Source: a virus (taxonomy: Duplodnaviria > Caudoviricetes). Taken from it: 25,680 bases of DNA. The notes beneath the pieces are model-generated. The model searched no databases and was not told where the DNA came from. It saw only the letters and a program-made list of their open reading frames with translations. Below are positions 438 through 19,074 of the stretch, one piece after another. The stretch spans positions 1 through 25,680 of IMG/VR virus record IMGVR_UViG_3300012924_000025; one strand, written 5' to 3'. Position numbers and translations under genes: made by a program. Position 1 is the first letter of the stretch. Each line of letters begins with the position of its first letter.

Positions 438-441
438 CGAC

Positions 442-603: not shown

Positions 604-612
604 TCACTCCTG

Positions 613-641
613 GGGAGGGGCCAATCCCGGCCCCTCCCTTT
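613..641 (+). terminator. GC-rich stem-loop, possible weak intrinsic terminator or processing site
   Basis: Perfect 10-bp stem GGGAGGGGCC (613-622) / GGCCCCTCCC (629-638), loop AATCCC, then only TTT. Sits in an intergenic gap. Confidence 0.5.
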
Positions 642-657
642 CCTCTAAGGATCCCAA

Positions 658-1083
658 ATGTCCAAACACACCAAGGTACAACCAATCATGGGTGAGCCAT
701 TCGATGTCAACCAGATCGACGAAGAGTTTGCGGGGCTCGTCCAAGAAGCACATGACCGATCTGGAGAGAGGATTGGCCGTCTCCGCCTTCCAAGAGGGGA
801 TGGCGATCAAGATCATAGCCAGGGCGCTCCGGCGCAGTCCAGGGACGATCAGGGAATTCCTCCAGAAGCGCCTGCGGAGGACCCAATTAACCCCTCGTAC
901 TACCGACAGCACCCAAGTGGGGTTGAATGCATCGACGTCGTCGAGCACATGACTTACAATCTCGGCACTGCGTATGCATATATCTGGCGGGCTGGGAAGA
1001 AGGGGGATATCGTAGAAGATCTCCGCAAGGCCCAGTGGTATCTGGACCGGGAGATCATGCGGCTGACGAGGGCGCCGAGATGA
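658..1083 (+). CDS. DUF3310 (SaV / T7 gp1.7 nucleotide-kinase-like) protein with disordered N-terminal extension
   Basis: C-terminal DPINPSYY..SGVECIDV...NLGTAYAYIWRAGKKG..EDLRKAQWYLDREI is the typical DUF3310 signature. SD AAGGA precedes the ATG. Confidence 0.85.
   Translation: MSKHTKVQPIMGEPFDVNQIDEEFAGLVQEAHDRSGERIGRLRLPRGDGDQDHSQGAPAQSRDDQGIPPEAPAEDPINPSYYRQHPSGVECIDVVEHMTYNLGTAYAYIWRAGKKGDIVEDLRKAQWYLDREIMRLTRAPR
704..952 (+). CDS. overprinted (+1 frame) helix-turn-helix protein, 82 aa (alternative start 752)
   Basis: KHMTDLERGLAVSAFQEGMAIKIIARALRRSPGTIREFLQKR matches the HTH_38/IS30-type pattern HLT..ER........G.S...IAR.L.RS..TI.RE..R. GGTGAG lies 7 nt before ATG 704. Confidence 0.65.
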   Translation: MSTRSTKSLRGSSKKHMTDLERGLAVSAFQEGMAIKIIARALRRSPGTIREFLQKRLRRTQLTPRTTDSTQVGLNASTSSST

Positions 1084-1307
1084 AACACGCAAGAGCCGAC
1101 TATGATCGTTTTCAAGATCCAGAAGGGATAATTCCTGCTGACGAGCCGGTGTTCTTACTTCGTGGTCAAGATAAATTGGCATGGCATGTGGTTAAGATAT
1201 ACGCATTCTGTGTTGGACTGACTGGTGACACTCATATGGCTAAGGTCTGCAAGGACTGGGCCAATGTGATGCGAGACTGGCCAAAGAAAAAGACACCTGA
1301 CTTATGA
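1080..1307 (+). CDS. hypothetical phage protein, 75 aa (DEPVFLLRxQD motif)
   Basis: ATGA overlaps with both neighbours. About 44% GC over 1101-1240. Confidence 0.75.
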   Translation: MKHARADYDRFQDPEGIIPADEPVFLLRGQDKLAWHVVKIYAFCVGLTGDTHMAKVCKDWANVMRDWPKKKTPDL

Positions 1308-2404
1308 AACCCATCCTCCTCGTCGGCGAACAACAAGGCGAGGCAGAGGCGAAGATCTCCCGAACCTTCGTCGGCACCACCGGGGCGGAACTATTGCGAA
1401 TGCTCCACGACGCGGGGGTCATTGAATTGACCCCCTCGGACCGTTCCTGCCTCTCTCGCTTCTATCGCTCTCGCGACCCCTGGACCCTGGACGCAATCTG
1501 GCGGGCCCATCCCGAAGTCTTCCGAACCAACGTGTTCCAACAATTCCCTCCAGCCAACGATCTCACATTCTTCTGCGGCCCGAAGAAGGAGGGGATCCCC
1601 GGCTACCCTATGCTCGCCAAGTCCAAATACATCCGAAAGGAATTCCAACATGAACTCGATCGCCTCGGCAATGAAATCCTTGCGCACGATCCTAATCTCA
1701 TCATCTGTCTCGGTAACACTGCTCTTTGGGCTCTGGCTGGCCGGACAGGCATCACGAAGCTTCGGGGTACCACCTGCGTTTCTACTCATCTTGTGTCTGG
1801 CTACAAGCTGCTACTTACGTACCACCCGTCTGCGGTCACGCGCCAATGGGAACTCCGCCCCGCCACCGTCGCGGATCTCTCCAAGGCCCTGAAGGAAAAG
1901 GACCACCCCGATGTCCGACGCCCCCAATGCACCATCTGGATTGAACCCAGCCTTGACGACATTGCTAGATTCATCCGAGATCACATCGTTGGATGCAAAA
2001 TCCTTTCTGTTGATATTGAGACTTCTGGCAATCAGATCACATGCATTGGATTCGCTCCACGACCAGACCTTGCGCTTGTTGTTCCAATCCATGACTCCCG
2101 GAACGCGAAGGGAAGCTATTGGCCATCTCCGATCGATGAGCGGCGGTGTTGGGAGCTTATACGTCCGGTCCTTGAGGCTACAGAAATACCTAAGCTCTTC
2201 CAGAACGGACTCTACGATATTCCCTTCATCCTCAGGACAACGGGGATCAGAGTAATGGGGGCGACGGAGGACACCATGCTTCTGCACCATGCCTTGCAAC
2301 CAGAAAGCCTGAAGAGCCTTGGGTTCCTGGGGTCGATCTATACGGATCACGGGCCTTGGAAGAGCGAGCGGAAGGGAACCGACACAATAAAGCGTGATGA
2401 ATGA
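1304..2404 (+). CDS. uracil-DNA-glycosylase-like domain fused to DEDD 3'-5' exonuclease (N-terminal part of split DNA polymerase A)
   Basis: Family-4-like UDG motifs LVGEQQG..E, FVG..G, TNV, ICLGNTA, TYHPSA. Exo I VDIET and Exo II FQNGLYD, then DTMLLHH and SLGFLGS. Confidence 0.85.
   Translation: MKPILLVGEQQGEAEAKISRTFVGTTGAELLRMLHDAGVIELTPSDRSCLSRFYRSRDPWTLDAIWRAHPEVFRTNVFQQFPPANDLTFFCGPKKEGIPGYPMLAKSKYIRKEFQHELDRLGNEILAHDPNLIICLGNTALWALAGRTGITKLRGTTCVSTHLVSGYKLLLTYHPSAVTRQWELRPATVADLSKALKEKDHPDVRRPQCTIWIEPSLDDIARFIRDHIVGCKILSVDIETSGNQITCIGFAPRPDLALVVPIHDSRNAKGSYWPSPIDERRCWELIRPVLEATEIPKLFQNGLYDIPFILRTTGIRVMGATEDTMLLHHALQPESLKSLGFLGSIYTDHGPWKSERKGTDTIKRDE
1650..1892 (+). CDS. overprinted (+1) putative two-TM membrane protein, 80 aa
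   Basis: AAAGGA lies 8 nt before the ATG. Two hydrophobic segments and a basic tail. Host-frame codons end in T in 24/61 here versus 5/60 at the gene start. Confidence 0.55.
   Translation: MNSIASAMKSLRTILISSSVSVTLLFGLWLAGQASRSFGVPPAFLLILCLATSCYLRTTRLRSRANGNSAPPPSRISPRP
1911..2255 (+). CDS. overprinted (+1) Leu-rich hypothetical protein, 114 aa
   Basis: AAGGA lies 8 nt before the ATG. About 20/47 host codons end in T over roughly 1952-2092. Confidence 0.45.
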   Translation: MSDAPNAPSGLNPALTTLLDSSEITSLDAKSFLLILRLLAIRSHALDSLHDQTLRLLFQSMTPGTRREAIGHLRSMSGGVGSLYVRSLRLQKYLSSSRTDSTIFPSSSGQRGSE

Positions 2405-3900
2405 GAATAATCCAAACCTCCGATTGCACACCAGATGAAATCCCCTCCCAGGAAGAACGCGATTGGGTCTACAACGGACTCGACTGCTGCATCACAGCGG
2501 AGATTTTGGATGTGCTACTTCCTCAACTAGATGACCACACAACCAAAACATATGCCTTTAGCCGTGCATTGCAGGGACCTGTTCTCGAGATGCAACTGCG
2601 GGGAATACTTGTGGACCAAGCCCGACGCCACGAGGTCATCGAGGATTACTACGACAAAATAGATCTCCTCGCGGATCAACTCGATGAGATCGTCCTGAAT
2701 GGGGTTGGCATGCCCACCTTCAACTGGCGCTCCAACCCCGACCTCCAGCGCCTGTTCTACGAACACCTCGCCATCCCAGTGATCCGCAACCGCGGCCGAC
2801 CCACGTGTGATCACAAAGCCCTGGAGAAAATGCAACTCTATGTGGTGGCCCGGCCGATTGTGAACCGTCTCTTGGTGATGCGTGAACTGCAAAAAAAGAT
2901 CGATTTCCTCAAAACCGGAGTAGACCCTGATGGACGAATCCGCACCTCTTACAACATCCCTGGAACAAACACAGGCCGATTTAGCTCAAGCTATAGCGAA
3001 TTTGGCACTGGCGGAAATCTACAAAACGTCGAGGAGAGCCTTAGAAGCGTTTTCATCAGCGATCCGGGATGGAAGTTCGCCAAGTTCGACGCCAAAAGTG
3101 GGGAATCCTACATCGTCGGGGCCATCGAGGGCAACCTCTTCGACGATTGGAGATATCTAGATGCAGTCGAATCTGGAGACGTGCATACAACGGTTGCTCG
3201 AATGTGTTGGCCCGACCTTGGGTGGACAGGTGACTTGGCAAGAGACACGGAAATCGCCGAACGACCATTCTACCGACATTACAGTTACCGTTTCATGTGC
3301 AAGAAACTCGGCCATGGAAGCAACTACGGAGGCCAGCCCCAAACCCTCGCCATGCAAACCACCCTCCCCGAGCCCATCGTTATCGGATTTCAGCCTAAGT
3401 ACTTCGCGGCATTTCCTGCCCATCTACGATGGCACGAATGGACCGATGATCAACTACGAAGAATTGGATTCCTTGTTACGCTCACAGGGCGTAGGCGTTG
3501 GTTCTTCGGTCGACGTACTGAAGCATCCACTCTCCGGGAGGCTATCGCTTACGATCCACAGGGAAGCCTAGCCGACATCGTAAACCGCGCAATGCTCCGC
3601 ATCTGGCGCAAGCGCCCGTGCCTCCTGATGATGCAAGACCACGACGCGCTGACATTTATGTACCGAGAAGAAATGGAAGATGAAATCATACCAACGCTCC
3701 AGCGAATGCTCCCCGAGGAGATCCCCCTTCAGCACGGCCGGGCAATGTGCATCCCATACGATTGCAAAATAGGCTGGAACAAGGGGGAATACCATGCTGA
3801 AGAAAACCCAGACGGGCTCAGGAACTTTGGGGGAGGGGACAATCGAAGACGTCAGCCGAAAGTGTCCCTCGTGGATCGATTGCTTCATAGAAAACACTGA
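2401..3900 (+). CDS. polA: DNA polymerase family A, polymerase part (begins with Exo III motif)
   Basis: YNGLD (Exo III), FNWRS, TGRFSS, NLQN, motif A DAKSGE, motif B RFMCKKLGHGSNYG, TLTGRRR, PQGSLAD, motif C QDHDAL. Confidence 0.95.
   Translation: MRIIQTSDCTPDEIPSQEERDWVYNGLDCCITAEILDVLLPQLDDHTTKTYAFSRALQGPVLEMQLRGILVDQARRHEVIEDYYDKIDLLADQLDEIVLNGVGMPTFNWRSNPDLQRLFYEHLAIPVIRNRGRPTCDHKALEKMQLYVVARPIVNRLLVMRELQKKIDFLKTGVDPDGRIRTSYNIPGTNTGRFSSSYSEFGTGGNLQNVEESLRSVFISDPGWKFAKFDAKSGESYIVGAIEGNLFDDWRYLDAVESGDVHTTVARMCWPDLGWTGDLARDTEIAERPFYRHYSYRFMCKKLGHGSNYGGQPQTLAMQTTLPEPIVIGFQPKYFAAFPAHLRWHEWTDDQLRRIGFLVTLTGRRRWFFGRRTEASTLREAIAYDPQGSLADIVNRAMLRIWRKRPCLLMMQDHDALTFMYREEMEDEIIPTLQRMLPEEIPLQHGRAMCIPYDCKIGWNKGEYHAEENPDGLRNFGGGDNRRRQPKVSLVDRLLHRKH
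2930..3160 (+). CDS. overprinted (+1) helical hypothetical protein, 76 aa
   Basis: GGAG lies 9 nt before the ATG. Amphipathic helix LEQTQADLAQAIANLALAEIYK. A/T-ending host codons about 24/47 versus about 7/42 at 2701-2826. Confidence 0.45.
   Translation: MDESAPLTTSLEQTQADLAQAIANLALAEIYKTSRRALEAFSSAIRDGSSPSSTPKVGNPTSSGPSRATSSTIGDI
3161..3571 (+). CDS. overprinted (+1) hypothetical protein, 136 aa (possible second start at 3446)
   Basis: GGAG lies 8 nt before the ATG, which abuts the TAG of the previous +1 ORF (TAGATG). Confidence 0.4.
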   Translation: MQSNLETCIQRLLECVGPTLGGQVTWQETRKSPNDHSTDITVTVSCARNSAMEATTEASPKPSPCKPPSPSPSLSDFSLSTSRHFLPIYDGTNGPMINYEELDSLLRSQGVGVGSSVDVLKHPLSGRLSLTIHREA

Positions 3901-5056
3901 GATCCTGGAGAGCCCACGGATCTGGCGCCAGTGGGCCGCGATCTCGACCATCGCGGCAGTGGTGGAGCAGAGGGTTTATGTGCGAAGCGGTGGGGATCGG
4001 CTCTACCCGAACATCTACTGCGGGCTAATCGGCCACGCCGGAACCGGGAAGACCCGGTCCATCTACAAAGGCCGCGACTACTACATGACCATCGAGGAAC
4101 CCCATCCGGCACCCACCTCTATGTCCGCCGCCTCGATGATCGACTCGCTGAGCAAATACAAACGAAAGATATTGATGCCCGAGGACGGGCCCCTGGAATA
4201 CAACTCCATGTACATCACCGCCGACGAACTCTCTGCGTTCATGCATAAATACGACGAAGAAGCCATCGGCACCATGTCGGCCTTTTACGACCCGCGGGCC
4301 TATGGGCAAACCCGGCGGGGGAATGACATTAACATCAAGATCAAGAGCCCCCAACTCAATCTAATTGTAGGCACCACCCCTTCCAACCTACTCCACTACA
4401 TGCCCGAATCCGCCTGGGAACAAGGCTTCACCTCGCGGATCATCCTTGTATTCTCCGACGAAAGGACCATTGGTGATGACTTCCAAGACGTTGATAACAG
4501 CCTTAACCCTGATCTCATTGCTGACCTGCGCCATATCGCTTCACTCGTGGGTCAGTTCCATGTCACAGAAGATTATCGCTCGCTCGTCAACCAGTGGCGA
4601 CAATTGGGGGAGCCTCCGGTCGTCTCACACCCAAAGCTTATCCACTACGGCACCCGAAGGCGTGTACATTTGTACAAACTCTCAATGGTCAGTGCGATTG
4701 ATCGGGGTGACCTGCTCGTACTCACCCGAGATGACTTCAACCGCGCGATGAATTGGATGACCGAGGCCGAGCGGTTCATGCCTGACATATTCAAAGCCGG
4801 CGCGGGGAACGCCGACGCGAAGGCAATGGATCAGATCTTCCACTACGTGCTCACGGAAGGGGTCCGTGGACCGGTCCCGGAGCGCAAAATCATCCGCTTC
4901 GCGAAGGACCTAGTCCCACTCCATTCCATCGAACGGGTGGTCCAAATAATGATAATGTCCCAAATGCTCCGCATGGTGAGGCAAGACTTCCGCACCCAGG
5001 CCCGGTGGTTCAAAGCCGAGGTGCCGGATGTGGATGAGGATGGGAATTTGGTCTAG
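3794..5056 (+). CDS. DUF3987-like AAA+ P-loop ATPase, putative replicative helicase
   Basis: Walker A GHAGTGKT, Walker B ITADE, sensor-1 GTTP, Arg finger GFTSR, possible C-terminal winged helix. SD AAGGGGG. Confidence 0.75.
   Translation: MLKKTQTGSGTLGEGTIEDVSRKCPSWIDCFIENTEILESPRIWRQWAAISTIAAVVEQRVYVRSGGDRLYPNIYCGLIGHAGTGKTRSIYKGRDYYMTIEEPHPAPTSMSAASMIDSLSKYKRKILMPEDGPLEYNSMYITADELSAFMHKYDEEAIGTMSAFYDPRAYGQTRRGNDINIKIKSPQLNLIVGTTPSNLLHYMPESAWEQGFTSRIILVFSDERTIGDDFQDVDNSLNPDLIADLRHIASLVGQFHVTEDYRSLVNQWRQLGEPPVVSHPKLIHYGTRRRVHLYKLSMVSAIDRGDLLVLTRDDFNRAMNWMTEAERFMPDIFKAGAGNADAKAMDQIFHYVLTEGVRGPVPERKIIRFAKDLVPLHSIERVVQIMIMSQMLRMVRQDFRTQARWFKAEVPDVDEDGNLV
4476..4751 (+). CDS. overprinted (+1) protein with N-terminal signal/TM segment, 91 aa
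   Basis: AAAGGA lies 9 nt before the ATG. MTSKTLITALTLISLLTCAISLHSW. About 14/34 T-ending host codons locally. Confidence 0.5.
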   Translation: MTSKTLITALTLISLLTCAISLHSWVSSMSQKIIARSSTSGDNWGSLRSSHTQSLSTTAPEGVYICTNSQWSVRLIGVTCSYSPEMTSTAR

Positions 5057-5355
5057 GGGTATTCTCCGTCCACGGAGGCCCGTGGGTGGGTCATCCACCC
5101 AGCACCCCGGCGAAGGTCTTCGTAATTCCTCTGAAGCATTGTCATCTGATTGTTCAGGTTGGTAATCTGATTCGTCTGCACCGCTTGCATGATCACCACC
5201 TCAGCAAGCTTTTTCAATTCCGATTCCAACCCGGTCAGCTTCTGCCCCATGGCTTTGTTACTCCAATCATTACGCAATACCATACCATAGCCGCCGGCTA
5301 GGAAGAGCAAGGTTTGCACCCCTATGCCAACCAGAAATTCCCAGTGTTCCAGCAT
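5053..5355 (-). CDS. small membrane protein, N-terminal TM + coiled coil (lysis-associated?)
   Basis: FLVGIGVQTLLFLAGGYGMVL followed by a heptad coil. Last gene of the lysis cluster. Confidence 0.7.
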   Translation of the reverse strand: MLEHWEFLVGIGVQTLLFLAGGYGMVLRNDWSNKAMGQKLTGLESELKKLAEVVIMQAVQTNQITNLNNQMTMLQRNYEDLRRGAGWMTHPRASVDGEYP

Positions 5356-5356
5356 C

Positions 5357-5923
5357 TCACAGCCCCGGGATCGGTACCAGCTTGGCGATGCCTGCGGCGC
5401 CGGAAATGGCCGCGGAGATGAATTGAATCACATTGGCCTGGGCTAGCTGCGCCGCCCCTGCGCAAGAGGTGAAGAGCTTCCCTTGTGGAGAGAGATTGTC
5501 AATGATCTCCGCAGCGGTTTCCACATCGGTGAACAGATGTGGATCGGGCTTGGCCATTGGGGTGCCATCCTTATTCTTAAGCCCATCGCCATTTGACTGC
5601 TGGTTCACCACAATGATCGCATCCCAACATTGCTTCCGGATCGCGCCCCCGTTGGTCTGGGCCGCACCTGCCATCGCAGAGGCGTATTGCAAATCCACAA
5701 GCGCTGCGGCTTGGATCTTGGCCCACAAGGCCTCCGCGTCTTTCTTCATATTCCCAGTGAGTTGCAACCCCGTGGAGGGATCTCCATGGAATTTGTTCTT
5801 CGCGTCTTCGACCAGATCACCCGTGAAGACCGGGCCCTGAGGAGCAGGAGCGGCTCGACGTGGGGCCTGAGCGAAAGCCGAGGTTGTTCCCAACGCCAGC
5901 ACCAGTGCCAGTGCGATCCTCAT
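5357..5923 (-). CDS. exported protein with Sec signal peptide and hydrophobic C-terminus (lysis cluster)
   Basis: MRIALALVLALGTTSAFA|Q, two Cys, C-terminus FISAAISGAAGIAKLVPIPGL. No lipobox. Confidence 0.7.
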   Translation of the reverse strand: MRIALALVLALGTTSAFAQAPRRAAPAPQGPVFTGDLVEDAKNKFHGDPSTGLQLTGNMKKDAEALWAKIQAAALVDLQYASAMAGAAQTNGGAIRKQCWDAIIVVNQQSNGDGLKNKDGTPMAKPDPHLFTDVETAAEIIDNLSPQGKLFTSCAGAAQLAQANVIQFISAAISGAAGIAKLVPIPGL

Positions 5924-6279
5924 GACGCAGCCCTCGCGGTTGCATTCACTGCCGCCGTTGCACTCGGCACTGGGGCGATCTTATCAATAGACTTGTCAGT
6001 GGCTATCTTGGCTAGGGTCGCGTTGGCTTTCTCGTTCACGTCAAGATGCTCCACTCCATCCATCGCTAGGACGGATTTAACCTGCGCCCCTTGGCCGGAG
6101 AACATCGTGACAAGGCCACCGAGGACCGCATTGCCAAGGCTACAGATCGATACGATGACATGTGCAGCGTTGGGGCCCATTAGATCAGTAAGCTGGGCCG
6201 TGGAGCCGATTAGGGCTCCGTTGACCACAAGGATGATACCGAGGATTTGTACCGCGGTGAGGTTCTTAAGCGTTTCCAT
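5920..6279 (-). CDS. putative holin-like two-TM membrane protein
   Basis: AAGGAG lies 7 nt before ATG 6279. Two hydrophobic helices. Directly downstream of the endolysin. Confidence 0.6.
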   Translation of the reverse strand: METLKNLTAVQILGIILVVNGALIGSTAQLTDLMGPNAAHVIVSICSLGNAVLGGLVTMFSGQGAQVKSVLAMDGVEHLDVNEKANATLAKIATDKSIDKIAPVPSATAAVNATARAAS

Positions 6280-6805
6280 TCTGGACTCCTTCAATCATCT
6301 TCATTGCAACATCATGGACTTGCTTGTTCCTGTTGAGCCAACCTTTGGTGAACCGAGGCTGATGAAGGCCGATGTAGAACGCCTGCTTCTCAGCGGTATA
6401 GGCATTCAACAGCTTCACCGGATCGGCCAAGGCCTCCTTGAAAGCCTCCCGGGTAATAGCCCCAACCCTCCCATCCGCAGCAACTCCAAGCGCACGCTGG
6501 CCCAAGATGATTGCACGATGGGGACCGGCATTCACGCACATGTCGAAGAAAACATAATCCGTACCAATCGGAATCCGATCGCACCACGGGTCCCAATATT
6601 CATCGTGGTAGATTGCACTGATCTCATCTTCCGAGGCATGGAAGACATCCTGCACTGCAAGGCCCTTCTCCCTCCGCCACGCGTCGTATTCCCTCTGGGT
6701 GATCCCTCGGGACGTACGCCCCCCATGGTCGGCGGGATCGTCATCATTTCCACCCTCGGACTTGAGCACTTCCCTCAGGCTCGCATTGAAATTCATCGCC
6801 GTCAT
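6266..6805 (-). CDS. endolysin, glycoside hydrolase family 108 with PG_binding_3 domain
   Basis: EGGNDDDPADHGGRTSRGIT, IYHDEYW, FDMCVNAG, DGRVG..T, FTKGWLNR. Confidence 0.92.
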   Translation of the reverse strand: MTAMNFNASLREVLKSEGGNDDDPADHGGRTSRGITQREYDAWRREKGLAVQDVFHASEDEISAIYHDEYWDPWCDRIPIGTDYVFFDMCVNAGPHRAIILGQRALGVAADGRVGAITREAFKEALADPVKLLNAYTAEKQAFYIGLHQPRFTKGWLNRNKQVHDVAMKMIEGVQNGNA

Positions 6806-9800
6806 TTCTCAACCCTTAGCTTTGTGGTCCCTCGGGTAACCCCGCGTAGCAACTCACCAGGACCCTTGGGTCTATCCTGACGATTGGCGTAGTCAATGCC
6901 AAAGCGGGCAGCATTGGCGACCGCCTTGGGCATCATACCCGAGGCTTCGCCAGCGAAGGTGAGGAAGTCTTGAACGGTCTTCCCTGCGTGTTCACGGTTT
7001 AGGGCCACTTTGCCCTTCATTACATCCCGGACGGCCTTGTCGAGATCGCCCTCGGCGGAGGTCAATAGGCCGGCACCTGGGGTGTGCCCGGAGGTGAAGG
7101 CATCGATTAGGTCGCGGAGGTAGAGGAATGAGGAGCCCGCACCCTTAAGGCCACCAAGGAGCACTCGTTCGCCAAGCCCCCGACGGTCGTCTTGGTTCAG
7201 CCCCGTGACCCATTCCTCGATCGCGGTGGGGATGACGTAGTAGGTGAGAATATCTGCAGAGAGCCCTGGGAGGAGCTTGGCGGCCGAGGCAATCTCCCCA
7301 CGTTTCCCAAGCTGGAACGTGTCGTTCATGGTGTGCATGATCTCAATCCGCCGTTGCATCACCGTGCCGAAGAAGCCGTAGACCGACGTGAGCCATCCGT
7401 GCAAAGGCCCCCCACCGCGGACCAACGCGGGTTGGTTCGTGGTTGCGGTGGATCCATGTTGACTCCGCACCGAACGATCCGCAATGTCCACCGCTTCGCC
7501 AAAGGAGGAGCCCTCCCCCAGGGACCGTTCAAACCTCGCGACCCAAAGTGGCACCGCGGAGAGCTTATCCGACATCGCCACTGGCCACGCGCCCCATTGC
7601 ATTACCTTCTCCCGCATGGAGGGGTAGCCGTATTGTTCCGACAAGGCCCCACCGAGGGTTTCTCGCCAGTTGCGCTCCCGGCGTTGGAGTTCCTCTGAAG
7701 CGTCGAGGGCGAATTTCCACCATGTCTTCCCGACCTCCGGCGATTGCCCGAAGAGCTTCCCGTAGGACTGCGCCATCGCGACCGGACCGACATCGCGCAT
7801 GGACATGAAGAAGGCAGTGGGGGCGTGTTTTAGCACTGTATAGAGATTGGCCCCGATGTACGTAGAGATCGTATTCTGCCGGAGTATCTCACTCGCCTGC
7901 CCCAACTTGGCCCAAACCGCGCCGTTGATGGATTGCTTCCGAGCGAGGTCTTCGAGATACGGCTGGAGAAGCTGGGCGTAGTGCTTGCCGTAGTGCTGGG
8001 TGATTGTGTTTTGCAACGAGGGATCCATCAGGATCTTCTGGGTCTCCAGCAGGGGCTCCCGGAAGTTGATATCATGAATCATCTGATCCAAGTGCTTCGG
8101 GATCATTCGGAAGCTGAGGTCCACTGGATACACCGCCCCGGTGCGGCTCTTGGTATAGCCGTTCGATGTCAGGATATGCCCAAAGTCCCCATCCTTATAC
8201 GGCCCCCCACGCATTTTCATCTTCTCCGAGAGCCAGATGGGATCGGGAATGAGCTTGTGGTACCATCCCCGATAGGTTCCAAATGGGGTGTCGATTGGTT
8301 CCAGCGGGATCTTATCCACCGTTTGCCCATTCAGGCGCTCATAGACGTTGTCCGCCCGCTTGATGAGATCGTTCCAGATCGTATCCCCAAACTTCTGTGC
8401 CCGGTCCCAGTCGGCCTTCGTGGTATTCCGATGAAGCCATTGCATCAACGCTTCGGGATCCGCGCCCCAGCCCTTCGCGAGGACGTTCCAGTTGGACCGA
8501 TTCCCAGCATTCTGAAGCATCGCCAGGACGTTTTCCCTGGTGAAGGTACTGTATCGGAAGATCTCCGGATCCAACGGTGGGGGATCCATCTTCTTCTTCA
8601 TATCCCCCCAGTCTCCAAGGGCCCGATAGGCGGTGGAGATCTCTCGGGAGAGCTTAGCTTCGCTGTTCGCCGCCCGCGAGAGGGGATAGGTGACGAATTT
8701 GTGAAACAGCCCCCGAGCATCCGCGCGGTCGAAGCGATTCATCAGCGTGGGGATCGAAGTGCTACCGGCGATGTATTGCTTCGCGAGCCCAGGTTCATAC
8801 CCCGCGGGCACGGCCTTCTCCCGGAAGGTCTTCACCTGATCTTTCATCTCCCCCAGGATCTGCTTGCGATCAAACGCCTCCCCTTCGCGGTAGACCTTGC
8901 GTTCCCCACGACCGTTTTCTACAAGGGCGTCAATGGTGCCTTTGACCTCTTTGAAATCTGCGTAGGGAAGCTGATCCACCGGCTTGCGAAACTGAGGGTC
9001 CTGCAAAACATCCGCGAGGGGCATATCCCGCAGGCCCATTGACTCCGTTAGCTTCGCCTGGAGGAATTGCTCCAAGGTGGTCTCGGCCTGCCTTCCAATA
9101 TTCTCCTGGATGTTCTGCACCGAGCGGGCACCCTTATATCCAATCCGCCGCAAGACATCCTGAATATGATTCCTATACTCCCCTTCCACAGAGGGGACCT
9201 CCCTCTTGGCAAAGGTCTTCGCGGTTCGGTTCAACTGGGTTCGTTCTCGTTCGTACTCCCGGGCCAGCTTTGCAGCAATAGTTGCATGATTCCGCTGTTG
9301 CGAAAGGCGGTAAGCCTCCGCCCAATCGCCCCTAGAAGCCGCATCTTCGATCTTCCTCCCTAGCTTCCCCGCAGTTTGCACAATCCGATCGAACTTAATC
9401 TGGCCCACAGGCGTTTGATCAAACACCCCTTTGACCATGGCCCGGGTTTGCTCCTTCGTAAACTGCGGTTCTTCCCCCGCCGCCAGTGCATACGCTAAGG
9501 TCTCCTCATGGACGAGGTTAAGCTGGGTCTCACTAACCGCCTGGTCCTTCGCTTCTTCCATGATCTTCTGGCCAAGGTCTCCAAACTCTGCGTTAACCCT
9601 GCGGTCTGTCTCGACGTCAATAAGCCGGTTGAGATAGTCTCGTTGAGACATTCCTGCAACTCGGCGATCTTGCGTAAGCATCCCAAGTCTCTCGACGAGT
9701 GCGTCTCCGGAGGTGTATCCGAAATGCGGAGCGAGGTCATCGGGGGAGACTCCTTTCGCTTTCTGCACGTATTCCTTCGGGAGGATCGAGCGCTGCTCGG

Positions 9801-12603
9801 GGGTTAGGGCATCCGGATGCAGCTTGATGTCCCCCTTCGCGAAGAGTTCATCCGTGGCGAGATCTGGCCGGCCGGCGAATTGCTCGCGGACTTCGTCACG
9901 GATCTCCGTCCGGCGGTCTTTCCATTCCTTGGTCATCGTCCGCTTATGCTGCCGCTCGGCACGGGCGGTGGCGGCTGAGAGGTCTTCGTTGTTCCTCTTC
10001 TCGATCAGGCGAAGCATCCGATCCATATGGGCCTGGGTCACCCCAAGCGCCTTGGCCTCGGCGAAGATTCCTTCGCGTTCGGGGATGCCTGGGGCGACCT
10101 CGCGGGCAGGGGGTTTGTCGTCGGGTTGGAACTTCGGATCGCCTTCGTCTTCCTTAGCTTTCCGAGCAGCGATCTTCTCGTCCAGTTCTTTCTGGAAGTC
10201 CTGAAGCTCACGGAAGGCCAAATCTGACTTCTGTTTGCGTGCCTCGCGCCCGGTCAACTGTTGGTTTTGATTGGCTGCTCGGCGAAAATTGGTGACGTTG
10301 TCATCTTGCTGCGCTGCGAAGCGATTGAACGATGGCTTGGCCAGTTCAGCCTTGGGCTCCCTAGAGCCGATCTCTCCCGAATCAATCTTCTCAAAGATCT
10401 TCTCCCAAGAAAGATCATGCCCCAGCATCTCCCCAAACCTCTGCCGCAGGCCTTCGAAGAAATCCTTAATCCGTTGGAATAGGGTGGCGTGGGCTTTGTC
10501 AAACGCGCCCCCATTGGCCCAGTGCTGATAGGCCTCGGCGATGCCTTCCTCGGTAAAATTGGCACCCTCATACTTCCCCCACCGTTCCGCAACGCTGTAG
10601 CGTTTGACCCAATCCCTCTGGGAGGCCTTCTCAAGAGTGCTCCATTCCGCATCGGAGAACATCCCCATTTTCTTCAACGCGTGGATGGACTCGTGCCGGG
10701 CGGACCCAATCGGATCTCGGTTGTTCAGAGAGACAACGATCTGGCGCAGGTTCGGGAAGAACACCCCCCGGGGATTGCCGACTCCGTCCACGGAGATGTC
10801 GTGGGCCACATCGCGCCCGGCGTCGGGAACGATCCGACGGAGTTCATTCAGGACAATCCGGCCCATCGGAGTGTCCGAGGCAAGGCCTTTGCCTTCGCTT
10901 TCGAACAGGGCGGAGACCCCAGCATGGAGATCTTCCCAGTTTTGGGAGAGCAGATTGCGGAAGTGCTCGTGGGTGATTGCGTCAAAGGCGTCGCCGCTCT
11001 GGACCTTGATCGTGGCCGGGCCCGTGCGCCCCGCACGCTCGCGAGCACCAGAGATCCGGAAGCCACCGATCTCTTTCACGTTTGGGTAGGCGGATTTGAT
11101 CTGGGCCAGCAGGGATCGGGTCAACCCTGGCCCGAAGGAATTAGGCCCAAAGCCTTGTGCCTCCAGTCCACCGATGTTGTCGATGTAAACCTTGGTCCCA
11201 CCCTCCCTGGCAGTGGCCTCAAGGAATCCAACCTTCTTGCCAGTCTCGTCGAGGATACGGAATTGATCCGACCCGATCACGCCAGTCTTGGCATCGATAT
11301 CAGGGCCTTTGGCCTCCAGCGTCAGCTTGCGATCCCCGATCTGGAACATCGGCTCCATGCCACCCGATCCGCGGACCAGCTGGACCGGATCGGCAATCGC
11401 CGAGCGTTCTCCCAGCCCAGAGAGCTTCGTCTCGTCCAGGGTCAGCCCACCATCCCGAAGGCGAGTGAAGTCGTGGAGTTCCTTCGCCACTTCGGGTTCG
11501 ATGTGGGCGAGGTAATCCGCGAGTGGGATCTGCACATCCCCACCGTAGCCCTCCGCGGCTTCTAGCGATTGGCGAAGCCCGGGGACAAAGCCGAGGATGC
11601 CATCATCCGCCGTTGGAACCTTGTCCCCATAGAGCTTTCGAATGGCGTCAGCGTCAATCCCAATCTCACGATCCCCAACGTGAGATCGTACAAACTGGGC
11701 GTAGAGTTCCGGGCTGCGATCTCGGGTAGCGGACTTGTTTCCCTCAGCCAGAGCCTGTTTAAATGCATCGCCGTCGACCTTCGCCTGTTGGGTTTTCACA
11801 TCGTCGATGATCGGGTGGACCCCTAGAGGGGGCTCTCCCGAGGGGTATTTATCCGCGATGTCCAGGCCGGATTTCATCTTCGCCAGGAGATCGGCGTTTT
11901 TGTTCAATAGGTCCCCTGGGCCACCTTGTGGGTGAACGCCAACATCCCCCCGCATCATGGCCCATTCGGCCATGGCTCGGGCTTCGCGAGCCACCCCGGC
12001 GCCGAAGACCTTGGTGATGCCATCCTCGCCCAATTGGAGAAACCCAGAGGTCACCCGAGAGAGCGACTCCGCACCGATTTCACCGAGGCCCAGGGCCCGG
12101 GTCACTGGGCTCAACAACGACGCCGTGCCAGGGTGCTTCAACGCCCATTCCATCTCCGAAGGGCGATCGCTGTAGCCTTTGTAAAACCGCTGGTAGCCCT
12201 CGGGCGCGAGGGGTTGCTCGCCGAAGCCTTGCATGAAGGATCGGGCGATCGAGTCACTCTTGAGCCAGCCCTCCAAGCCCGATTGGTCCCCAAGCCGAGA
12301 GAGATGCTGGGAGGCAACATCCAGCTGCCCAAGGTCATCGTGGCTGACGCGAGCGGCCATGGGATGGGAGTTGAGATAGTCTGCGATGTGAAAGTTATCA
12401 CCGATGATGGATGAGCCAAGGGCGGCCTTGTGCTGTCGTTCGAACCCATCGATGTCCCCATAGATCGCGGTTGAGGGCACCCCGGTGGCTTGGGAAAGCT
12501 CCAGCGCCCGTGCGGCCTCATCCGCGTTTTCATCCATCGCGGAGTAGTTCGCCATCTGCGCCGTGCGGGCTTCGTCGGTAAAGAAGTCTTCGGACATGCT
12601 CAT
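6802..12603 (-). CDS. large internal virion (ejection) protein, 1933 aa, with zincin-like HExxH domain and possible GNAT-like domain
   Basis: Size, helical composition and position after two other internal-protein genes. RHESIHAL (10695-10681) with downstream EEGIAEAY. Confidence 0.8.
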   Translation of the reverse strand: MSMSEDFFTDEARTAQMANYSAMDENADEAARALELSQATGVPSTAIYGDIDGFERQHKAALGSSIIGDNFHIADYLNSHPMAARVSHDDLGQLDVASQHLSRLGDQSGLEGWLKSDSIARSFMQGFGEQPLAPEGYQRFYKGYSDRPSEMEWALKHPGTASLLSPVTRALGLGEIGAESLSRVTSGFLQLGEDGITKVFGAGVAREARAMAEWAMMRGDVGVHPQGGPGDLLNKNADLLAKMKSGLDIADKYPSGEPPLGVHPIIDDVKTQQAKVDGDAFKQALAEGNKSATRDRSPELYAQFVRSHVGDREIGIDADAIRKLYGDKVPTADDGILGFVPGLRQSLEAAEGYGGDVQIPLADYLAHIEPEVAKELHDFTRLRDGGLTLDETKLSGLGERSAIADPVQLVRGSGGMEPMFQIGDRKLTLEAKGPDIDAKTGVIGSDQFRILDETGKKVGFLEATAREGGTKVYIDNIGGLEAQGFGPNSFGPGLTRSLLAQIKSAYPNVKEIGGFRISGARERAGRTGPATIKVQSGDAFDAITHEHFRNLLSQNWEDLHAGVSALFESEGKGLASDTPMGRIVLNELRRIVPDAGRDVAHDISVDGVGNPRGVFFPNLRQIVVSLNNRDPIGSARHESIHALKKMGMFSDAEWSTLEKASQRDWVKRYSVAERWGKYEGANFTEEGIAEAYQHWANGGAFDKAHATLFQRIKDFFEGLRQRFGEMLGHDLSWEKIFEKIDSGEIGSREPKAELAKPSFNRFAAQQDDNVTNFRRAANQNQQLTGREARKQKSDLAFRELQDFQKELDEKIAARKAKEDEGDPKFQPDDKPPAREVAPGIPEREGIFAEAKALGVTQAHMDRMLRLIEKRNNEDLSAATARAERQHKRTMTKEWKDRRTEIRDEVREQFAGRPDLATDELFAKGDIKLHPDALTPEQRSILPKEYVQKAKGVSPDDLAPHFGYTSGDALVERLGMLTQDRRVAGMSQRDYLNRLIDVETDRRVNAEFGDLGQKIMEEAKDQAVSETQLNLVHEETLAYALAAGEEPQFTKEQTRAMVKGVFDQTPVGQIKFDRIVQTAGKLGRKIEDAASRGDWAEAYRLSQQRNHATIAAKLAREYERERTQLNRTAKTFAKREVPSVEGEYRNHIQDVLRRIGYKGARSVQNIQENIGRQAETTLEQFLQAKLTESMGLRDMPLADVLQDPQFRKPVDQLPYADFKEVKGTIDALVENGRGERKVYREGEAFDRKQILGEMKDQVKTFREKAVPAGYEPGLAKQYIAGSTSIPTLMNRFDRADARGLFHKFVTYPLSRAANSEAKLSREISTAYRALGDWGDMKKKMDPPPLDPEIFRYSTFTRENVLAMLQNAGNRSNWNVLAKGWGADPEALMQWLHRNTTKADWDRAQKFGDTIWNDLIKRADNVYERLNGQTVDKIPLEPIDTPFGTYRGWYHKLIPDPIWLSEKMKMRGGPYKDGDFGHILTSNGYTKSRTGAVYPVDLSFRMIPKHLDQMIHDINFREPLLETQKILMDPSLQNTITQHYGKHYAQLLQPYLEDLARKQSINGAVWAKLGQASEILRQNTISTYIGANLYTVLKHAPTAFFMSMRDVGPVAMAQSYGKLFGQSPEVGKTWWKFALDASEELQRRERNWRETLGGALSEQYGYPSMREKVMQWGAWPVAMSDKLSAVPLWVARFERSLGEGSSFGEAVDIADRSVRSQHGSTATTNQPALVRGGGPLHGWLTSVYGFFGTVMQRRIEIMHTMNDTFQLGKRGEIASAAKLLPGLSADILTYYVIPTAIEEWVTGLNQDDRRGLGERVLLGGLKGAGSSFLYLRDLIDAFTSGHTPGAGLLTSAEGDLDKAVRDVMKGKVALNREHAGKTVQDFLTFAGEASGMMPKAVANAARFGIDYANRQDRPKGPGELLRGVTRGTTKLRVEK
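9495..9740 (-). CDS. overprinted (+1) hypothetical protein, 81 aa
   Basis: AAAGGAG lies 9 nt before the ATG. Helical middle and Arg/Lys tail. Host codons are locally A/T-ending (AGA CTT, CGA GTT GCA GGA, CTT ATT). Confidence 0.45.
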   Translation of the reverse strand: MTSLRISDTPPETHSSRDLGCLRKIAELQECLNETISTGLLTSRQTAGLTQSLETLARRSWKKRRTRRLVRPSLTSSMRRP

Positions 12604-15332: not shown

Positions 15333-17953
15333 TTCTGCGAGTCCCCTACTTCGATCTCAGGGATGACGCCGAGCACGGATGCGGGGTATGGGTTGGGCTG
15401 TTGGATGCAGTATTGACCAAAGACGTCCCATTGCGGATCGACGATTATCCGGGCGTCGGTGGTTTGGAGCCCGGCCACCAGAGCGTTTGACATGGTACCG
15501 ACGTTGCCTAAGGCAAGGTCCTTCATCGGCAAGGCGGTGGCGAAGCTTCGCCCCGCGGAGAGCCCAAGGGCGTCTTTGGCACGGACGGTCACCGCGGAGA
15601 CTTTCTTCCGTTTGCCTTGGACGGTGGGTTGGCCGAGGTCTAGGGCGAGGGTTTGGATCTGGGGAAGGAAGGCCAGGCCGACGGTTACGATCGAGGCGTT
15701 GGGGATGGCTGTGAGGCCGGTGGTTCCACCTGGGCCGAAGACGAAGGTACCAGAGATGGGCATGGTGAAGTTGATCACGACCCCGTCGGCAAGACCAGTG
15801 ACGACTGCGCCGGCGAGGTGTTGGGCGCCGGAGAAGCTGGTCGCTGGAGCACCGTTGTAGCCGATCCCCGCGTCGACCTGCCAGGAGGATTTGTAATTGT
15901 TCGGGTAGGTTAGTTCAACGAAGCGTTCGATGTAGTAGACCAACGCGCCGTTGATGTTGCGTTGGACACAGTGGTAGATGGCGTCGACCGCGCCGATGGC
16001 GGTGGTTTCGGTGACGGTCGCGATGGATTTGAACGCCCCTTGAGTGTCGGAGTGGGCCCAGGCGATCATCTCTTGTTCTTTGAGGAAGGTCAGGGAGAGC
16101 AGTTGACCATCGTTGCGGACCGCCCAGACGACTTTGAAGGGTTCCTCCGCCCAGGCCCACTCTAGAAGCTGGAAACCGTAGAATAGGTGCGAGGAGAGGA
16201 TTGAGATGTCAGTCCCGGTGAAGACCTGAGTGTAGAAGTTGAACACGAGGTCGCGGACGATCGAGCCTTTGGCCTGGAGGTAGAGGATGTTGTCGTTGGC
16301 GACGATTGGAGGGCAGACGCCGGCCGCGCCGTTGTAGGACTGCGGTCGGGCGGAGAAGCTAGTTGCGGAGATGGGTGCGCCTGAGGTGCCTCCATTGACG
16401 ATCCAAGAGAGCTTATCGGCGAGAACGATCAGGCCTTGAGGCTGAGGGATCAGCCATTGGAGTGTGCTCAAGACCCCGGAGACAAGGGTGCCTTGGATGG
16501 CGTTATCTGGGGCGGTGGGGAAGGTTGTGTCGAAGTTGAACGGCGAGCCGGGCTGGGAGAAGTTCATCTGTTGAACGGATTGAACCGGCGCAGCGAGGCA
16601 AAGGCGTTGGTCTTGGAACCCTGGGACGGAAGGGTTGCCGGCGGATGGGGCGCCGAGGACGGCCGTGGCTGCACCGCCGCCTCCAGAGAGTCCGCCTACG
16701 GCTGGCGGGGAGCCGTAGCCGGTACCAGGAGAGGTCATGGCGATCGAGGCTAAGGTCCAGGTGACATTGAATCGGGCCGAGCCGTCGCCGTGACCGGAGG
16801 TGGAGAAGAAGCCGGTGGGGGAGATGGTCTGGCCATTGCCCGAAGCGAGGGACCCGGCGGCGATGATGACCACGCCGGATAGCGTGCCAGCGAAGCCAGT
16901 GGTGGAGGTGACTTGTAGGGTGGCCCCACCCGCGAGGAGGATGGTATCGCCGACATTCCATCCGGTGCTAGCCACGGCGATCGATACCGCGGTGAGTTGG
17001 CAATAGGCGATCGCAGCCGCGCCGGATCCGCCTCCGCCGGTGAAGGTCGGGGTTGGGACGGTTACGTTGGTGAAGTTGCCCGGGTTAGTGATGGTGACAG
17101 ATTGGACCCCGGTTCCAGAGAATGGGTTCTGTGGGATCGGTGGGCCCTGGGAGAAGTCCGGGGTGATGTTGGTGTCGTTGAAGGTGATCCCGGTGAAGTT
17201 CCCTGCGAAGCCATATTGGGCCCCGGCGGCAACGGTGTTGGTCATGCTCACGAGGGATTTGTAAACGTTGTAGCTGACGGCGCCGGCGACGGAGGCGATG
17301 TTGATGGTGTTGGTGTAGTTGGTACCGAGAAAGGTCCGGTTCGCGAATGGGACCTGCGCGGTGGGATCGGATTCCTGCCCGTTGGCATCGACGGAGGTCA
17401 GCAAGTAGGCCACGCACTGGGTGCCCGCAGGGGCATTGGATGCGGCGGTGATTCCGCCCGGCGGGGAGATGGTCGCGCCGAAGGTGATTGGGGCCAGGGT
17501 CCAATTGGTCGCGGAGATCAGGGTGAGGATGTAGGGCGGGTGGTTCGGGTGGCAGATGATGAGTTGGTTGACGTTCTGGGCGAACTTTAGCTGGGAGAGT
17601 TCGGCGGAAGTGTAAGGCGAGGCGATGGTGTAGATCGGGCCCCCAGAGAAGACCGGCGCGCCGTTGTTGTAGAACGCGAGGTAGCCTGCGCCGTTGAGGA
17701 CGCCGAATTCGAGAATGTAGGCCACGGTGAATGAGGCCTGGAAGGGGATCAGCCGCGGTGGGCCCGAGCCATTGTTCTGCGACTTGGCGACGAAGCGAGT
17801 GCCGGGTCGGGTAGTTGCGCCACCGCGGTAGTCTACGAAGAAATTCCGTAGAAGGGCCGCACCGGAGTGGTACTTGGCTAGGTCCACCCGAGCGTTCAGC
17901 TGCGGGGCCCATTCGCCGGCGTTCCAAGAGGTTTGGATTGCGTTATCGGACAT
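15329..17953 (-). CDS. tail tubular protein B (nozzle, T7 gp12 / P22 gp10-like)
   Basis: QTSWNAGEWAPQL..RVDL..Y, GGATTRPGTRFV, RLIPF, LKFAQ, QDQRL, WAVRNDGQL, AWAH, YIERF. Confidence 0.9.
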   Translation of the reverse strand: MSDNAIQTSWNAGEWAPQLNARVDLAKYHSGAALLRNFFVDYRGGATTRPGTRFVAKSQNNGSGPPRLIPFQASFTVAYILEFGVLNGAGYLAFYNNGAPVFSGGPIYTIASPYTSAELSQLKFAQNVNQLIICHPNHPPYILTLISATNWTLAPITFGATISPPGGITAASNAPAGTQCVAYLLTSVDANGQESDPTAQVPFANRTFLGTNYTNTINIASVAGAVSYNVYKSLVSMTNTVAAGAQYGFAGNFTGITFNDTNITPDFSQGPPIPQNPFSGTGVQSVTITNPGNFTNVTVPTPTFTGGGGSGAAAIAYCQLTAVSIAVASTGWNVGDTILLAGGATLQVTSTTGFAGTLSGVVIIAAGSLASGNGQTISPTGFFSTSGHGDGSARFNVTWTLASIAMTSPGTGYGSPPAVGGLSGGGGAATAVLGAPSAGNPSVPGFQDQRLCLAAPVQSVQQMNFSQPGSPFNFDTTFPTAPDNAIQGTLVSGVLSTLQWLIPQPQGLIVLADKLSWIVNGGTSGAPISATSFSARPQSYNGAAGVCPPIVANDNILYLQAKGSIVRDLVFNFYTQVFTGTDISILSSHLFYGFQLLEWAWAEEPFKVVWAVRNDGQLLSLTFLKEQEMIAWAHSDTQGAFKSIATVTETTAIGAVDAIYHCVQRNINGALVYYIERFVELTYPNNYKSSWQVDAGIGYNGAPATSFSGAQHLAGAVVTGLADGVVINFTMPISGTFVFGPGGTTGLTAIPNASIVTVGLAFLPQIQTLALDLGQPTVQGKRKKVSAVTVRAKDALGLSAGRSFATALPMKDLALGNVGTMSNALVAGLQTTDARIIVDPQWDVFGQYCIQQPNPYPASVLGVIPEIEVGDSQK

Positions 17954-19074
17954 TAGCTAAACCCAGGCCACATTCCGCCCCAATCGAATCCGGTGTTGTA
18001 TGGGCCTGAGGCCCCATCGGTGTAATCGACGCCTCGCATCCGGATCCAATCAGGGATGACGTTGTTCACAGTCAGCGCCTCATTGCCATCGTTCCCTCGG
18101 GCGATCCGGATGACCTCGTTGCCTTGGGTGATTACAAGGTTCGAGAGGGACTTGTCCCCGGTGAGGGCTTTGCAAAGGGCCCCGCCGAGTACGAAGGCGT
18201 AGGCTTCTTGGAAGTCGTCATCGAAGACGTTTTCATCGGTGATGTTCTTCACGTAGTTCAAAAGGCCGAATTCTTGGTTGGTGAGGATTACTCGCTGGTC
18301 CCCTGCGGCGGCGGTGAAGGTGAGGTTGAAGGTGGCACCGGTGCCGAGGCCGGTTGTGCCTGTGCCGCCAAGGTTGCCTGGGTTGGGACCCTGAGCGGAT
18401 GGGTTCGCAACCGGCGCGAAGTAGCTCCCGGAGAATGGAACGACTTCGTTTGGGATGATAGGGACAATAGCGACAGAAGTGACAACCCCAAGAGCACCAA
18501 CCCCAGTGACCTGCAAAGTAGCTGGGCATCCAACTGGGGGAAGGCCTTGTGCACCTTGTGCGAGAGTGATAAGATCGCCCAGAGCATAGCCGGCGCCTCC
18601 TGAGGCCACAGTGGCAGCGGTGACGGAGAAGAATTGGTCGACGGCGACTTTGAACTGGACTGGCGGGCCTTGCCAGAACGAGGCTGCGCCACCGGTCACG
18701 GCGGTGGTGATGGGAACGCCGCCAGCGAAGCCAGTTGCGGTTTGAGGGGTGATCCAACAGGCGCGGATGCAATCGAAGGGGTATTGGTATTCGTACGCCC
18801 ACGGCGGGGCCGGTTGGCCCTTTTGCCATAGTTGGGTCGCGGGGGAGGTGTTCTCTGGGGTGCCGGGGATGGAGGTGATGAAGTTGAGGGCGATGGTTTG
18901 GAACGCGAAGGACCAAGGGGCCATCCGAAGCAAACGTCGGCGGAAGGAGTCGTAGATGATGTTACTCTGAATCGCTTCGTTGCTTCCATTGCTAGCAAGC
19001 TCTGCAGCCGTAACTGTGGTCCTAGACCCAAAGGTTTGCAAAGCACGATTCACCATGTCTACTTTGGCAGTCAT
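17953..19074 (-). CDS. tail tubular protein A (adaptor, T7 gp11-like) with beta-rich insertion
   Basis: VDMVNRAL..FG, YDSFRRRLL..APWSFA, WAYEYQYPFDCIR, FDDDF..A....L...L...LTG, DWIRMR. Confidence 0.88.
   Translation of the reverse strand: MTAKVDMVNRALQTFGSRTTVTAAELASNGSNEAIQSNIIYDSFRRRLLRMAPWSFAFQTIALNFITSIPGTPENTSPATQLWQKGQPAPPWAYEYQYPFDCIRACWITPQTATGFAGGVPITTAVTGGAASFWQGPPVQFKVAVDQFFSVTAATVASGGAGYALGDLITLAQGAQGLPPVGCPATLQVTGVGALGVVTSVAIVPIIPNEVVPFSGSYFAPVANPSAQGPNPGNLGGTGTTGLGTGATFNLTFTAAAGDQRVILTNQEFGLLNYVKNITDENVFDDDFQEAYAFVLGGALCKALTGDKSLSNLVITQGNEVIRIARGNDGNEALTVNNVIPDWIRMRGVDYTDGASGPYNTGFDWGGMWPGFS
18288..18587 (-). CDS. overprinted (+1) single-TM protein, 99 aa
   Basis: Perfect AGGAGG (18601-18596) lies 8 nt before ATG 18587. 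TM-like SLGLVLLGLSLLSLLSL. Host codons end in T over roughly 18460-18587. Confidence 0.55.
   Translation of the reverse strand: MLWAILSLSHKVHKAFPQLDAQLLCRSLGLVLLGLSLLSLLSLSSQTKSFHSPGATSRRLRTHPLRVPTQATLAAQAQPASAPVPPSTSPSPPPQGTSE

Follow-up and report, generated by a model that had tools for sequence, protein, structure and literature searches.

Small genes nested inside larger ones are known from several phages. T7 carries five of them, namely 4.1 and 4.2 in the primase/helicase gene 4, 18.7 in 18.5, and 19.2 and 19.3 in the terminase gene 19; by RefSeq coordinates all five are in the +1 frame, and four are annotated as hypothetical proteins. In phiX174, which has a small single-stranded DNA genome, the lysis gene E is overprinted in the +1 frame of gene D, and T-ending codons of D write the membrane helix of E. 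Embedded spanins (lambda Rz1 in Rz; T7 18.7 in 18.5) are likewise nested +1 genes for envelope proteins in tailed phages. One paper gives them as the main example of embedded genes, which are rare in Caudoviricetes and for which annotation guidance urges caution (PMC8785237); under such guidance, genes of this kind are dropped by design. Elsewhere, +1 overlaps are reported to make up 75% of overlaps in one study, and more so for internal ones (PMC8227390), one mycobacteriophage case is mentioned (PMC12908700), and longer genomes are said to have less overlap (PMC2992710). Here, we analyze +1 open reading frames (ORFs) nested in the replication and virion genes of a tailed phage, using a stretch of 25,680 nucleotides (positions 1 to 25,680 of IMG/VR record IMGVR_UViG_3300012924_000025, Caudoviricetes; linear, ~53% complete), hereafter referred to as the window.

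A first-pass annotation of the window had proposed a hidden layer of ten such ORFs, which we name by their lowest coordinate. The proposal holds for seven of them (704, 1650, 1911, 2930, 3161, and 4476 on the + strand and 18288 on the - strand) and not in the same way for the other three (9231, 9495, and 11562). The seven frames are nested, conserved, and under selection, as seen from their start conservation, stop avoidance and, in six of the seven, lower host-synonymous rates. Judged from the sequences, they are very probably translated, and we put at roughly 0.8 the probability that these frames, whose Shine-Dalgarno (SD) site and ATG are kept across related phages, are genes for translated accessory factors acting on the host cell during replication. 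By prediction, one product binds DNA, three are membrane proteins, and three (1911, 2930, and 3161) are soluble. The layer had been placed in core replication and virion genes alike; it lies mainly in the replication module, and of the four virion-gene ORFs 18288 alone is solid.

Like T7, the window phage has a podovirus-type genome in which small genes are nested, on the same strand, in genes for replication and morphogenesis. However, no embedded gene is annotated in T7 polymerase gene 5, whereas the window has two in its family A polymerase gene (polA) and two in the uracil-DNA glycosylase (UDG)-exonuclease gene. Unlike those of T7, the nested genes of the window lie over catalytic motifs and in tandem pairs, and the likeness to T7 meant here is one of layout. 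Relative to the T7-type design, the novelty lies in how densely the genes are packed, in their overlap with catalytic motifs of the polymerase and exonuclease, and in the gains by stages discussed below; the kind of gene itself is already known. ORFs 1650, 4476, and 18288 resemble phiX174 E in frame and, in principle, in mechanism. Whereas E serves in lysis, the window phage has a separate lysis cassette at 5053-6805 (a GH108 endolysin and adjoining membrane-protein genes), which argues against a lysis role for the nested genes. We also considered and rejected a spanin reading, since none of the eight product sets contains a lipobox and the hosts are UDG-exonuclease, primase, and tail-tube genes, not i-spanins. 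The closest cultured phage, Caulobacter phage Kuura (OQ067476), is 36% identical in both enzymes and has the same gene order (UDG-exonuclease, polA, primase-like, then opposite-strand virion genes). It has no nested genes annotated, and a non-statistical inspection of the +1 frames of this one genome found no comparable SD-led counterparts. A search for literature on nested genes in this phage family, with subscription papers largely outside its coverage, found none.

In the window, all ten ORFs are ATG-led, on the same strand as their host ORF, wholly within it, and in its +1 frame, as first annotated, and the SD-like purine run reported ahead of each start is present 6-9 nt upstream in all ten. 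The SD duplex energies range from -3.7 kcal/mol (1911 and 4476) to -10 kcal/mol (9231 and 18288). The count of T-ending codons given for the UDG gene was reproduced as well (24/61 in the best 61-codon window, at 1649, and 5 in codons 56-115). As to the broader statement that most of the ORFs coincide with A/T-rich wobble patches, the G+C content of third codon positions (GC3) is 0.08-0.18 below the host-gene mean in 7/10, while 704, 1650, and 2930 show little or no drop; at 1650, T at third positions rises instead. We then compared the number of +1 ORFs, counted by SD energy and length, with 300 synonymous shuffles of 26 host genes. For SD energies ≤-6 and at least 60 amino acids (aa), 8 ORFs were observed against 3.5±1.35 in shuffles, and 0/300 shuffles reached 8; for ≤-4, there were 12 against 5.6±1.7 (at least 60 aa) and 16 against 9.9±2.3 (at least 35 aa). 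The +2 frame showed no excess of SD-led ORFs over the same shuffles. SD-led +1 ORFs are thus enriched, yet roughly half of them per genome are due to chance. Since the shuffles do not say which half is real, only relatives can separate true from chance ORFs.

Relatives were taken from the best 80 of 436 viral polymerase hits, the best 80 of 167 metagenome polymerase hits, and the best 80 of 143 tail-tube hits. From the replication-gene rows, we took out the window's own copies (L021, L025, and L174) and Kuura, together with 141 hits that were duplicates or contained in others, 6 that had internal stops, and 2 that had N; this left 136 polymerase, 105 UDG-exonuclease, 108 primase, and 29 DUF3310 rows, window included. 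The virion genes were analyzed with an earlier set, in which 15 stop-containing hits were skipped. Counts were made after removing rows more than 95% identical in nucleotides, and the expected numbers of +1 stops were computed from the residues and codon usage of each host. Rates of substitutions that are synonymous in the host and nonsynonymous in +1 (SN rates) refer to disjoint close pairs and are given against their comparison values.

In the close clade, the start and open frame are kept together in 19/23 (18288) to 40/41 (3161) genomes. Stop gains and losses per wobble change, counted along the tree, amount to 0.005-0.033 within five of the ORFs versus 0.44-0.55 in six flanks. A blind scan of 18 host genes in five frames returned long stop-free segments at 704, 1650, 1911, 3161, 4476, and the polymerase/primase overlap, and elsewhere just two weak segments of 30-34 codons; 2930 and 18288 emerged from it as conserved SD-ATG columns. 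Neither the +2 nor the antisense frames of the host genes contained a long conserved ORF in the comparative scan. Distant relatives carry stops at the same host codons at which the +1 frames of the close clade are intact. The SN rates, which the first-pass annotation had expected to be reduced, are lowered by a third to six-sevenths at 704, 1650, 1911, 2930, 4476, and 18288, revealing amino-acid-level constraint on the second frame, and not at 3161. The A/T wobble shift tracks ORF integrity, being +0.21 in intact (n=78) versus +0.05 in broken (n=24) relatives for 3161, in genomes that are not independent of each other, and +0.13 versus +0.04 for 4476. The +1 starts rest on synonymous or compensated host codon choices. 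Profile matches for six products have an open host frame beneath them in 771/774 cases, the pattern expected for overprinting. Altogether, six nested frames double-code 1755 of the 4399 nt (40%) of 658-5056.

Two of these frames lie in the UDG-exonuclease gene (1304..2404, + strand), which encodes a UDG-like domain joined to the 3'-5' exonuclease portion of a family A polymerase split between two genes (Pfam UDG and DNA_pol_A_exo1; PHROG 17). ORF 1650 (1650..1892, + strand) encodes 65-80 aa with two predicted transmembrane helices and overlies what we take to be the UDG YHP motif, at about 1820. Its start and frame are kept in 30/32 close-clade genomes, with 2 +1 stops seen against 59.3 expected and an SN rate of 0.228 against 0.40/0.52, and two hydrophobic segments are found in 32/33 products. 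The host residue at its start is H or Y, with an xAT codon in 30/32. A second in-frame ATG, at 1671, 7 codons downstream, is present in 24/34 and is the sole start in some lineages; a dual start at 1650/1671 is possible. ORF 1911 (1911..2255, + strand) is a family-wide frame of 114-166 aa, predicted to form a soluble helical bundle (five helices in the AF2 model, pLDDT 66), and covers the presumed exonuclease I and II motifs (2012 and 2204-2218). Start and frame are kept in 34/37, with 5 stops against 96.5 expected and an SN rate of 0.18-0.21 against 0.40/0.52, and the start lies on host D, N, or H with xAT in 35/37. At 55-64% polymerase identity, its core is open in 38/40 scorable loci. In distant relatives the start shifts among several positions while the helices are kept, with strong SDs in many. 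Among the most distant relatives, a hydrophobic, different +1 product is found at this position (L019:1491-1763), possibly through independent overprinting.

Homolog searches with the two products gave 7 matches for 1650 and 47 for 1911, all 29-92% identical and none named. In the ESM Atlas structure search, the best score was 0.88 for 1650, to a match without a name that we regard as a lead only, and 0.78 for 1911. For the latter, Foldseek searches of PDB and BFVD gave no match at E≤0.001, a PDB sequence profile search gave none, and Pfam returned 2 stray single-member matches of 64.

The downstream polA gene (2401..3900, + strand; Pfam DNA_pol_A, E 9.7e-30) holds a second tandem pair. ORF 2930 (2930..3160, + strand) encodes an acidic product of 61-76 aa, likely one long helix, over what is presumably polymerase motif A (3088). 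Its start and frame are kept in 35/37, 1 stop is seen against 21.1 expected, and the SN rate is 0.226 against 0.387. Its start is built from host codons Gly GGA in 37/38 (background 0.41) and Asp GAT in 38/39. The ATG of ORF 3161 (3161..3571, + strand; 136-155 aa) directly follows the TAG of 2930, and the frame overlies a segment that we assume to be motif B (3301-3330). Stop avoidance is the strictest of the set here (1 seen against 130.4 expected; start and frame in 40/41), and the start uses Arg AGA (background 0.20) and Asp GAT, each in 40/42. The adjacent TAG is made by the rare Leu codons CTA/TTA (backgrounds 0.10 and 0.05) in 32/42, which suggests that the two ORFs are translationally coupled through the TAG-ATG junction. 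Both ORFs are distributed more narrowly than polA, with 3161 found in 15/42 and the 2930 start in 12/42 more distant relatives, and both fade below 72% polymerase identity. What constrains 3161 is its open frame, fixed start, and composition shift, with no site-level amino-acid constraint; on balance we favor a young, disordered protein selected on composition.

Other parts of the polA +1 frame deserve mention. A candidate micro-ORF beyond the earlier list (3680..3772, + strand; 16-32 aa, cationic) lies just before the primase start. Its ATG is conserved in 38/41 relatives (21.9 expected), with an SD in 36/41 and 2 stops against 30 expected in 3661-3720; in the window the SD is weak (-3.0), and the ORF ends 21 nt before the primase ATG. 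The primase start itself is 35 codons inside polA (3794-3900), in +1; neither frame has been lost there, silent rates are very low, and no +1 stop is seen in 3781-3900 against 29 expected. Over polA codons ~17-94 (2450-2680), relatives such as L004, L009, and L012 show another stop-poor +1 frame, ATG-led in many relatives (15 stops against 68 expected in 2461-2640), which is broken in the window and whose 4-fold rate is not lowered. In the most distant relatives (47% PolA identity), one 260-codon +1 frame runs across both polA ORFs (L018:3874-4659 and L019:2627-3406), possibly through independent overprinting.

ORF 4476 (4476..4751, + strand) lies in the gene for a DUF3987/primase-like protein (3794..5056, + strand; PHROG 14296, E 3.6e-38), the first 35 codons of which form the overlap with polA. 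It encodes 91-98 aa (up to 155 in some genomes) with an N-terminal hydrophobic segment and a Ser/Thr/Cys-rich tail, and many relatives start 6 codons earlier. Start and frame are kept in 28/32, 1 stop is seen against 136 expected, the SN rate is 0.178 against 0.37/0.45, and 26/33 products have one hydrophobic segment; 0/33 match Pfam. More distant primases (35-52% identity) provide a natural control, in that the frame is open in 1/22 and the 97 stops are close to the 103.7 expected. On the other strand, ORF 18288 (18288..18587, - strand) lies in a tail tubular protein A-like gene with a Gly/Thr-rich insert (17953..19074, - strand; PHROG 394, E 1.5e-31). Its product has 85-99 aa, a basic N-terminus, and one predicted transmembrane helix, with one hydrophobic segment in 17/17. 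Start and frame are kept in 19/23, with 12 stops against 51.1 expected and an SN rate of 0.269 against 0.41/0.48; the start, at 18587, is set in Tyr TAT in 46/64 (background 0.38).

At ORF 704 (704..952, + strand), the direction of overprinting appears to be reversed from that first proposed. The 82-aa product is a basic helix-turn-helix (HTH) protein, and its frame overlaps the 74-aa N-terminal extension of a DUF3310-domain ORF (658..1083, + strand; Pfam DUF3310, E 1.3e-8). The start and frame are kept in 20/21, 0 stops are seen against 23.7 expected, and the SN rate is 0.072 against 0.487. HTH_38 is matched by 16/16 members (best E 3.1e-10), the window product itself scoring 25.9 bits (E 8.5e-6; gathering score 27 bits). 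There are 290 HTH homologs, one named from Bradyrhizobium sp. 179, and in L242 the HTH copy is largely free-standing. While the HTH frame is constrained, the host extension drifts (NS 0.238). From the homologs, the free-standing copy, and this drift, the HTH gene is probably the older of the pair and the DUF3310 extension the newcomer. The DUF3310 ORF is open for 67-131 codons upstream of its domain in every listed locus with an overlapping HTH match, and L131, L151, and L160 have short DUF3310 genes without HTH. In L211:3449-3904 and L239:3192-3716, the HTH/extension overlap moves as a unit ahead of a different C-terminal domain.

The remaining three ORFs lie in the gene for a 1933-aa virion/ejection-type protein with an LPD22 domain (6802..12603, - strand; PHROG and Pfam searches). 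ORF 9495 (9495..9740, - strand; 48-81 aa) is a probable, clade-limited +1 gene, with start and frame in 6/9 and 6 stops against 21.2 expected; it is also present in L267, and the GC3 drop goes with its presence, while the SN rate is not lowered. ORF 11562 (11562..11768, - strand; 68 aa) is doubtful, being open in 7/8 with 6.8 stops expected and having an SD-ATG in 2/8, although in the window GC3 dips there to an unusual degree (0.001 of windows). ORF 9231 (9231..9344, - strand; 37 aa) is unsupported, with 4 stops against 4.0 expected and an SD-ATG in 1/9, the window only. Because few close relatives cover this gene, some of these ORFs may be young and window-specific.

Several results weigh against reading the seven frames as genes for functional proteins. 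At 3161, wobble sites change at the neutral rate (SN 0.425 against 0.387), the 4-fold difference is 0.38 against 0.29-0.34 in flanks, there is no conservative bias, and the AF2 model (pLDDT 42) shows no confident fold. The drop at 2930 nearly disappears with wider pairs (0.295 against 0.31-0.34), and that at 4476 is absent from all-against-all pairs, which are saturated (0.65 against 0.66). The SDs of 1911 and 4476 are weak in the window. Core boundaries for the start and open-frame counts and the tree-aware events were drawn after the maps had been viewed, and the shared ancestry of relatives is accounted for only in the tree-aware events and the disjoint pairs. Finally, apart from the HTH protein, no product matched a family or fold in the profile and structure searches, which makes the proposed functions guesses.

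Among the rival explanations, the one that survives best is that translation itself is selected, through ribosome cover of the mRNA, coupling, or relief of polarity toward the primase, and that the peptides are by-products. The primase gene shares its frame with 2930, 3161, and 3680; 3161 combines its near absence of stops and fixed start with neutral wobble changes and an unfolded model; and both the recurrent TAG-ATG junction and the end of 3680 close to the primase ATG fit this explanation. However, six ORFs have lowered SN rates, transmembrane counts are constant at 1650 and 18288, and even 3161 shifts its wobble composition only where it is intact. Moreover, the +1 frame between 3571 and 3680 is full of stops, so there is no continuous relay of translation to the primase. 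We consider the explanation improbable for the set, and for 3161 and 3680 individually a minority view that nevertheless deserves weight.

Far less probable is that the layer arose through chance, through codon or dinucleotide bias, or as A/T-rich recombinant patches. The shuffles do yield 3.5-10 SD-led +1 ORFs per genome, and chance probably explains 9231, given its stop and start counts, and perhaps 11562. Against it, stop counts are normal in distant relatives whose host residues are the same, as in the primases, and flanks and other frames show no such stop depletion. Dozens of genomes have the A/T patches at the same columns, and L176 is the nearest polA neighbor of the window both within the ORFs and outside them (0.91-0.96). 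For the seven, stop avoidance and the tree-aware stop events rule this explanation out. Equally improbable is ribosomal frameshifting from the host gene into +1 to give alternative C-termini, for which one may cite the stop-poor +1 frame upstream of 1650, since every frame opens with a conserved SD-ATG, shifting starts keep their SD, a +1 stop directly precedes the 3161 ATG, and stops lie 3-10 codons upstream of 2930.

Under the reading of nested accessory genes, a mechanism can be proposed. The wobble base of a host codon falls on position 2 of the +1 codon, which determines hydrophobicity; with host codons ending in T or A, transmembrane and amphipathic helices could thus be written in +1 while the enzyme stays unchanged. 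The SD and ATG would come from synonymous choices (GGA, AGA, AAG; GAT/CAT/TAT before G), internal initiation would take place on the mRNA of the enzymes themselves, and initiation at 3161 would be coupled to 2930 via their junction. Six genes would have arisen by overprinting of long-established enzyme or tail genes, though not all at once, with 1911 and 1650 among the early gains, 2930 and 3161 following, and 4476 coming last. At 704, the HTH gene is probably the older one, overgrown by an extension of its neighbor. This order is suggested by distribution, 1650 being deep among relatives and 4476 nearly confined to the close clade. Of the 13 close-clade loci covering the five assayed regions, 6 carry five +1 frames and 7 carry four, whereas 38 of 49 more distant loci carry two or fewer.

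What the products do is a matter for guesses. The roles in host takeover, exclusion, or anti-defence first suggested have gained no direct support, as none of the 10 products matches an anti-defence, exclusion, or defence family in PHROGs, and NCBIfam and PADLOC returned only weak HTH-type or chance matches. With considerable doubt, we suggest an inner-membrane role in superinfection exclusion or envelope interference for 1650 and 4476, regulation of phage transcription for 704, and binding to proteins of the host or the phage for 1911 and 2930. A broader view, which we advance tentatively and at slightly less than even odds, is that the +1 frame of replication enzymes in this widespread uncultured podovirus family is a standing nursery for new genes. 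There, tandem coupled de novo helical (1911) and membrane genes, with 3161 caught early (selected for being produced while its sequence is still unconstrained), would together form a hidden host-takeover operon missed by gene callers. Public data contain hundreds of members of the family (one polymerase scan matched 436 viral contigs), and three adjacent enzyme genes alone hold four or five +1 frames in 13/13 complete close-clade loci. With genes born at different ages in a single frame, and with natural controls at hand, questions of de novo protein origin become testable, and small phage proteins predicted to act on bacterial hosts emerge as a class that has yet to be mined.

The nested frames belong to a + strand replication module (DUF3310, UDG-exonuclease, polA, and primase-like genes), followed by a podovirus-type lysis and virion module on the - strand. 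Internal sigma-70 promoter predictions in 1-6000 gave 6 sites against 2.8±1.8 in shuffles; one alone is on the + strand (932-960), and none explains the polA ORFs. The polymerase is split into two genes, and their seam in the window, at 2401, is a direct ATGA overlap, while in many relatives 150-600 nt of other DNA lies there. Polymerase relatives in genome bins are mostly on short contigs of unrelated taxa. Between the DUF3310 and UDG-exonuclease genes lies a small A/T-rich gene (1080-1307, + strand), present in 1/20 first-set loci only, which likely starts at 1080 and not at 927. Upstream of the tail-tube gene, an A/T-rich HNH endonuclease gene (19071-19508, - strand; GC3 0.43) is probably a recent mobile insert.

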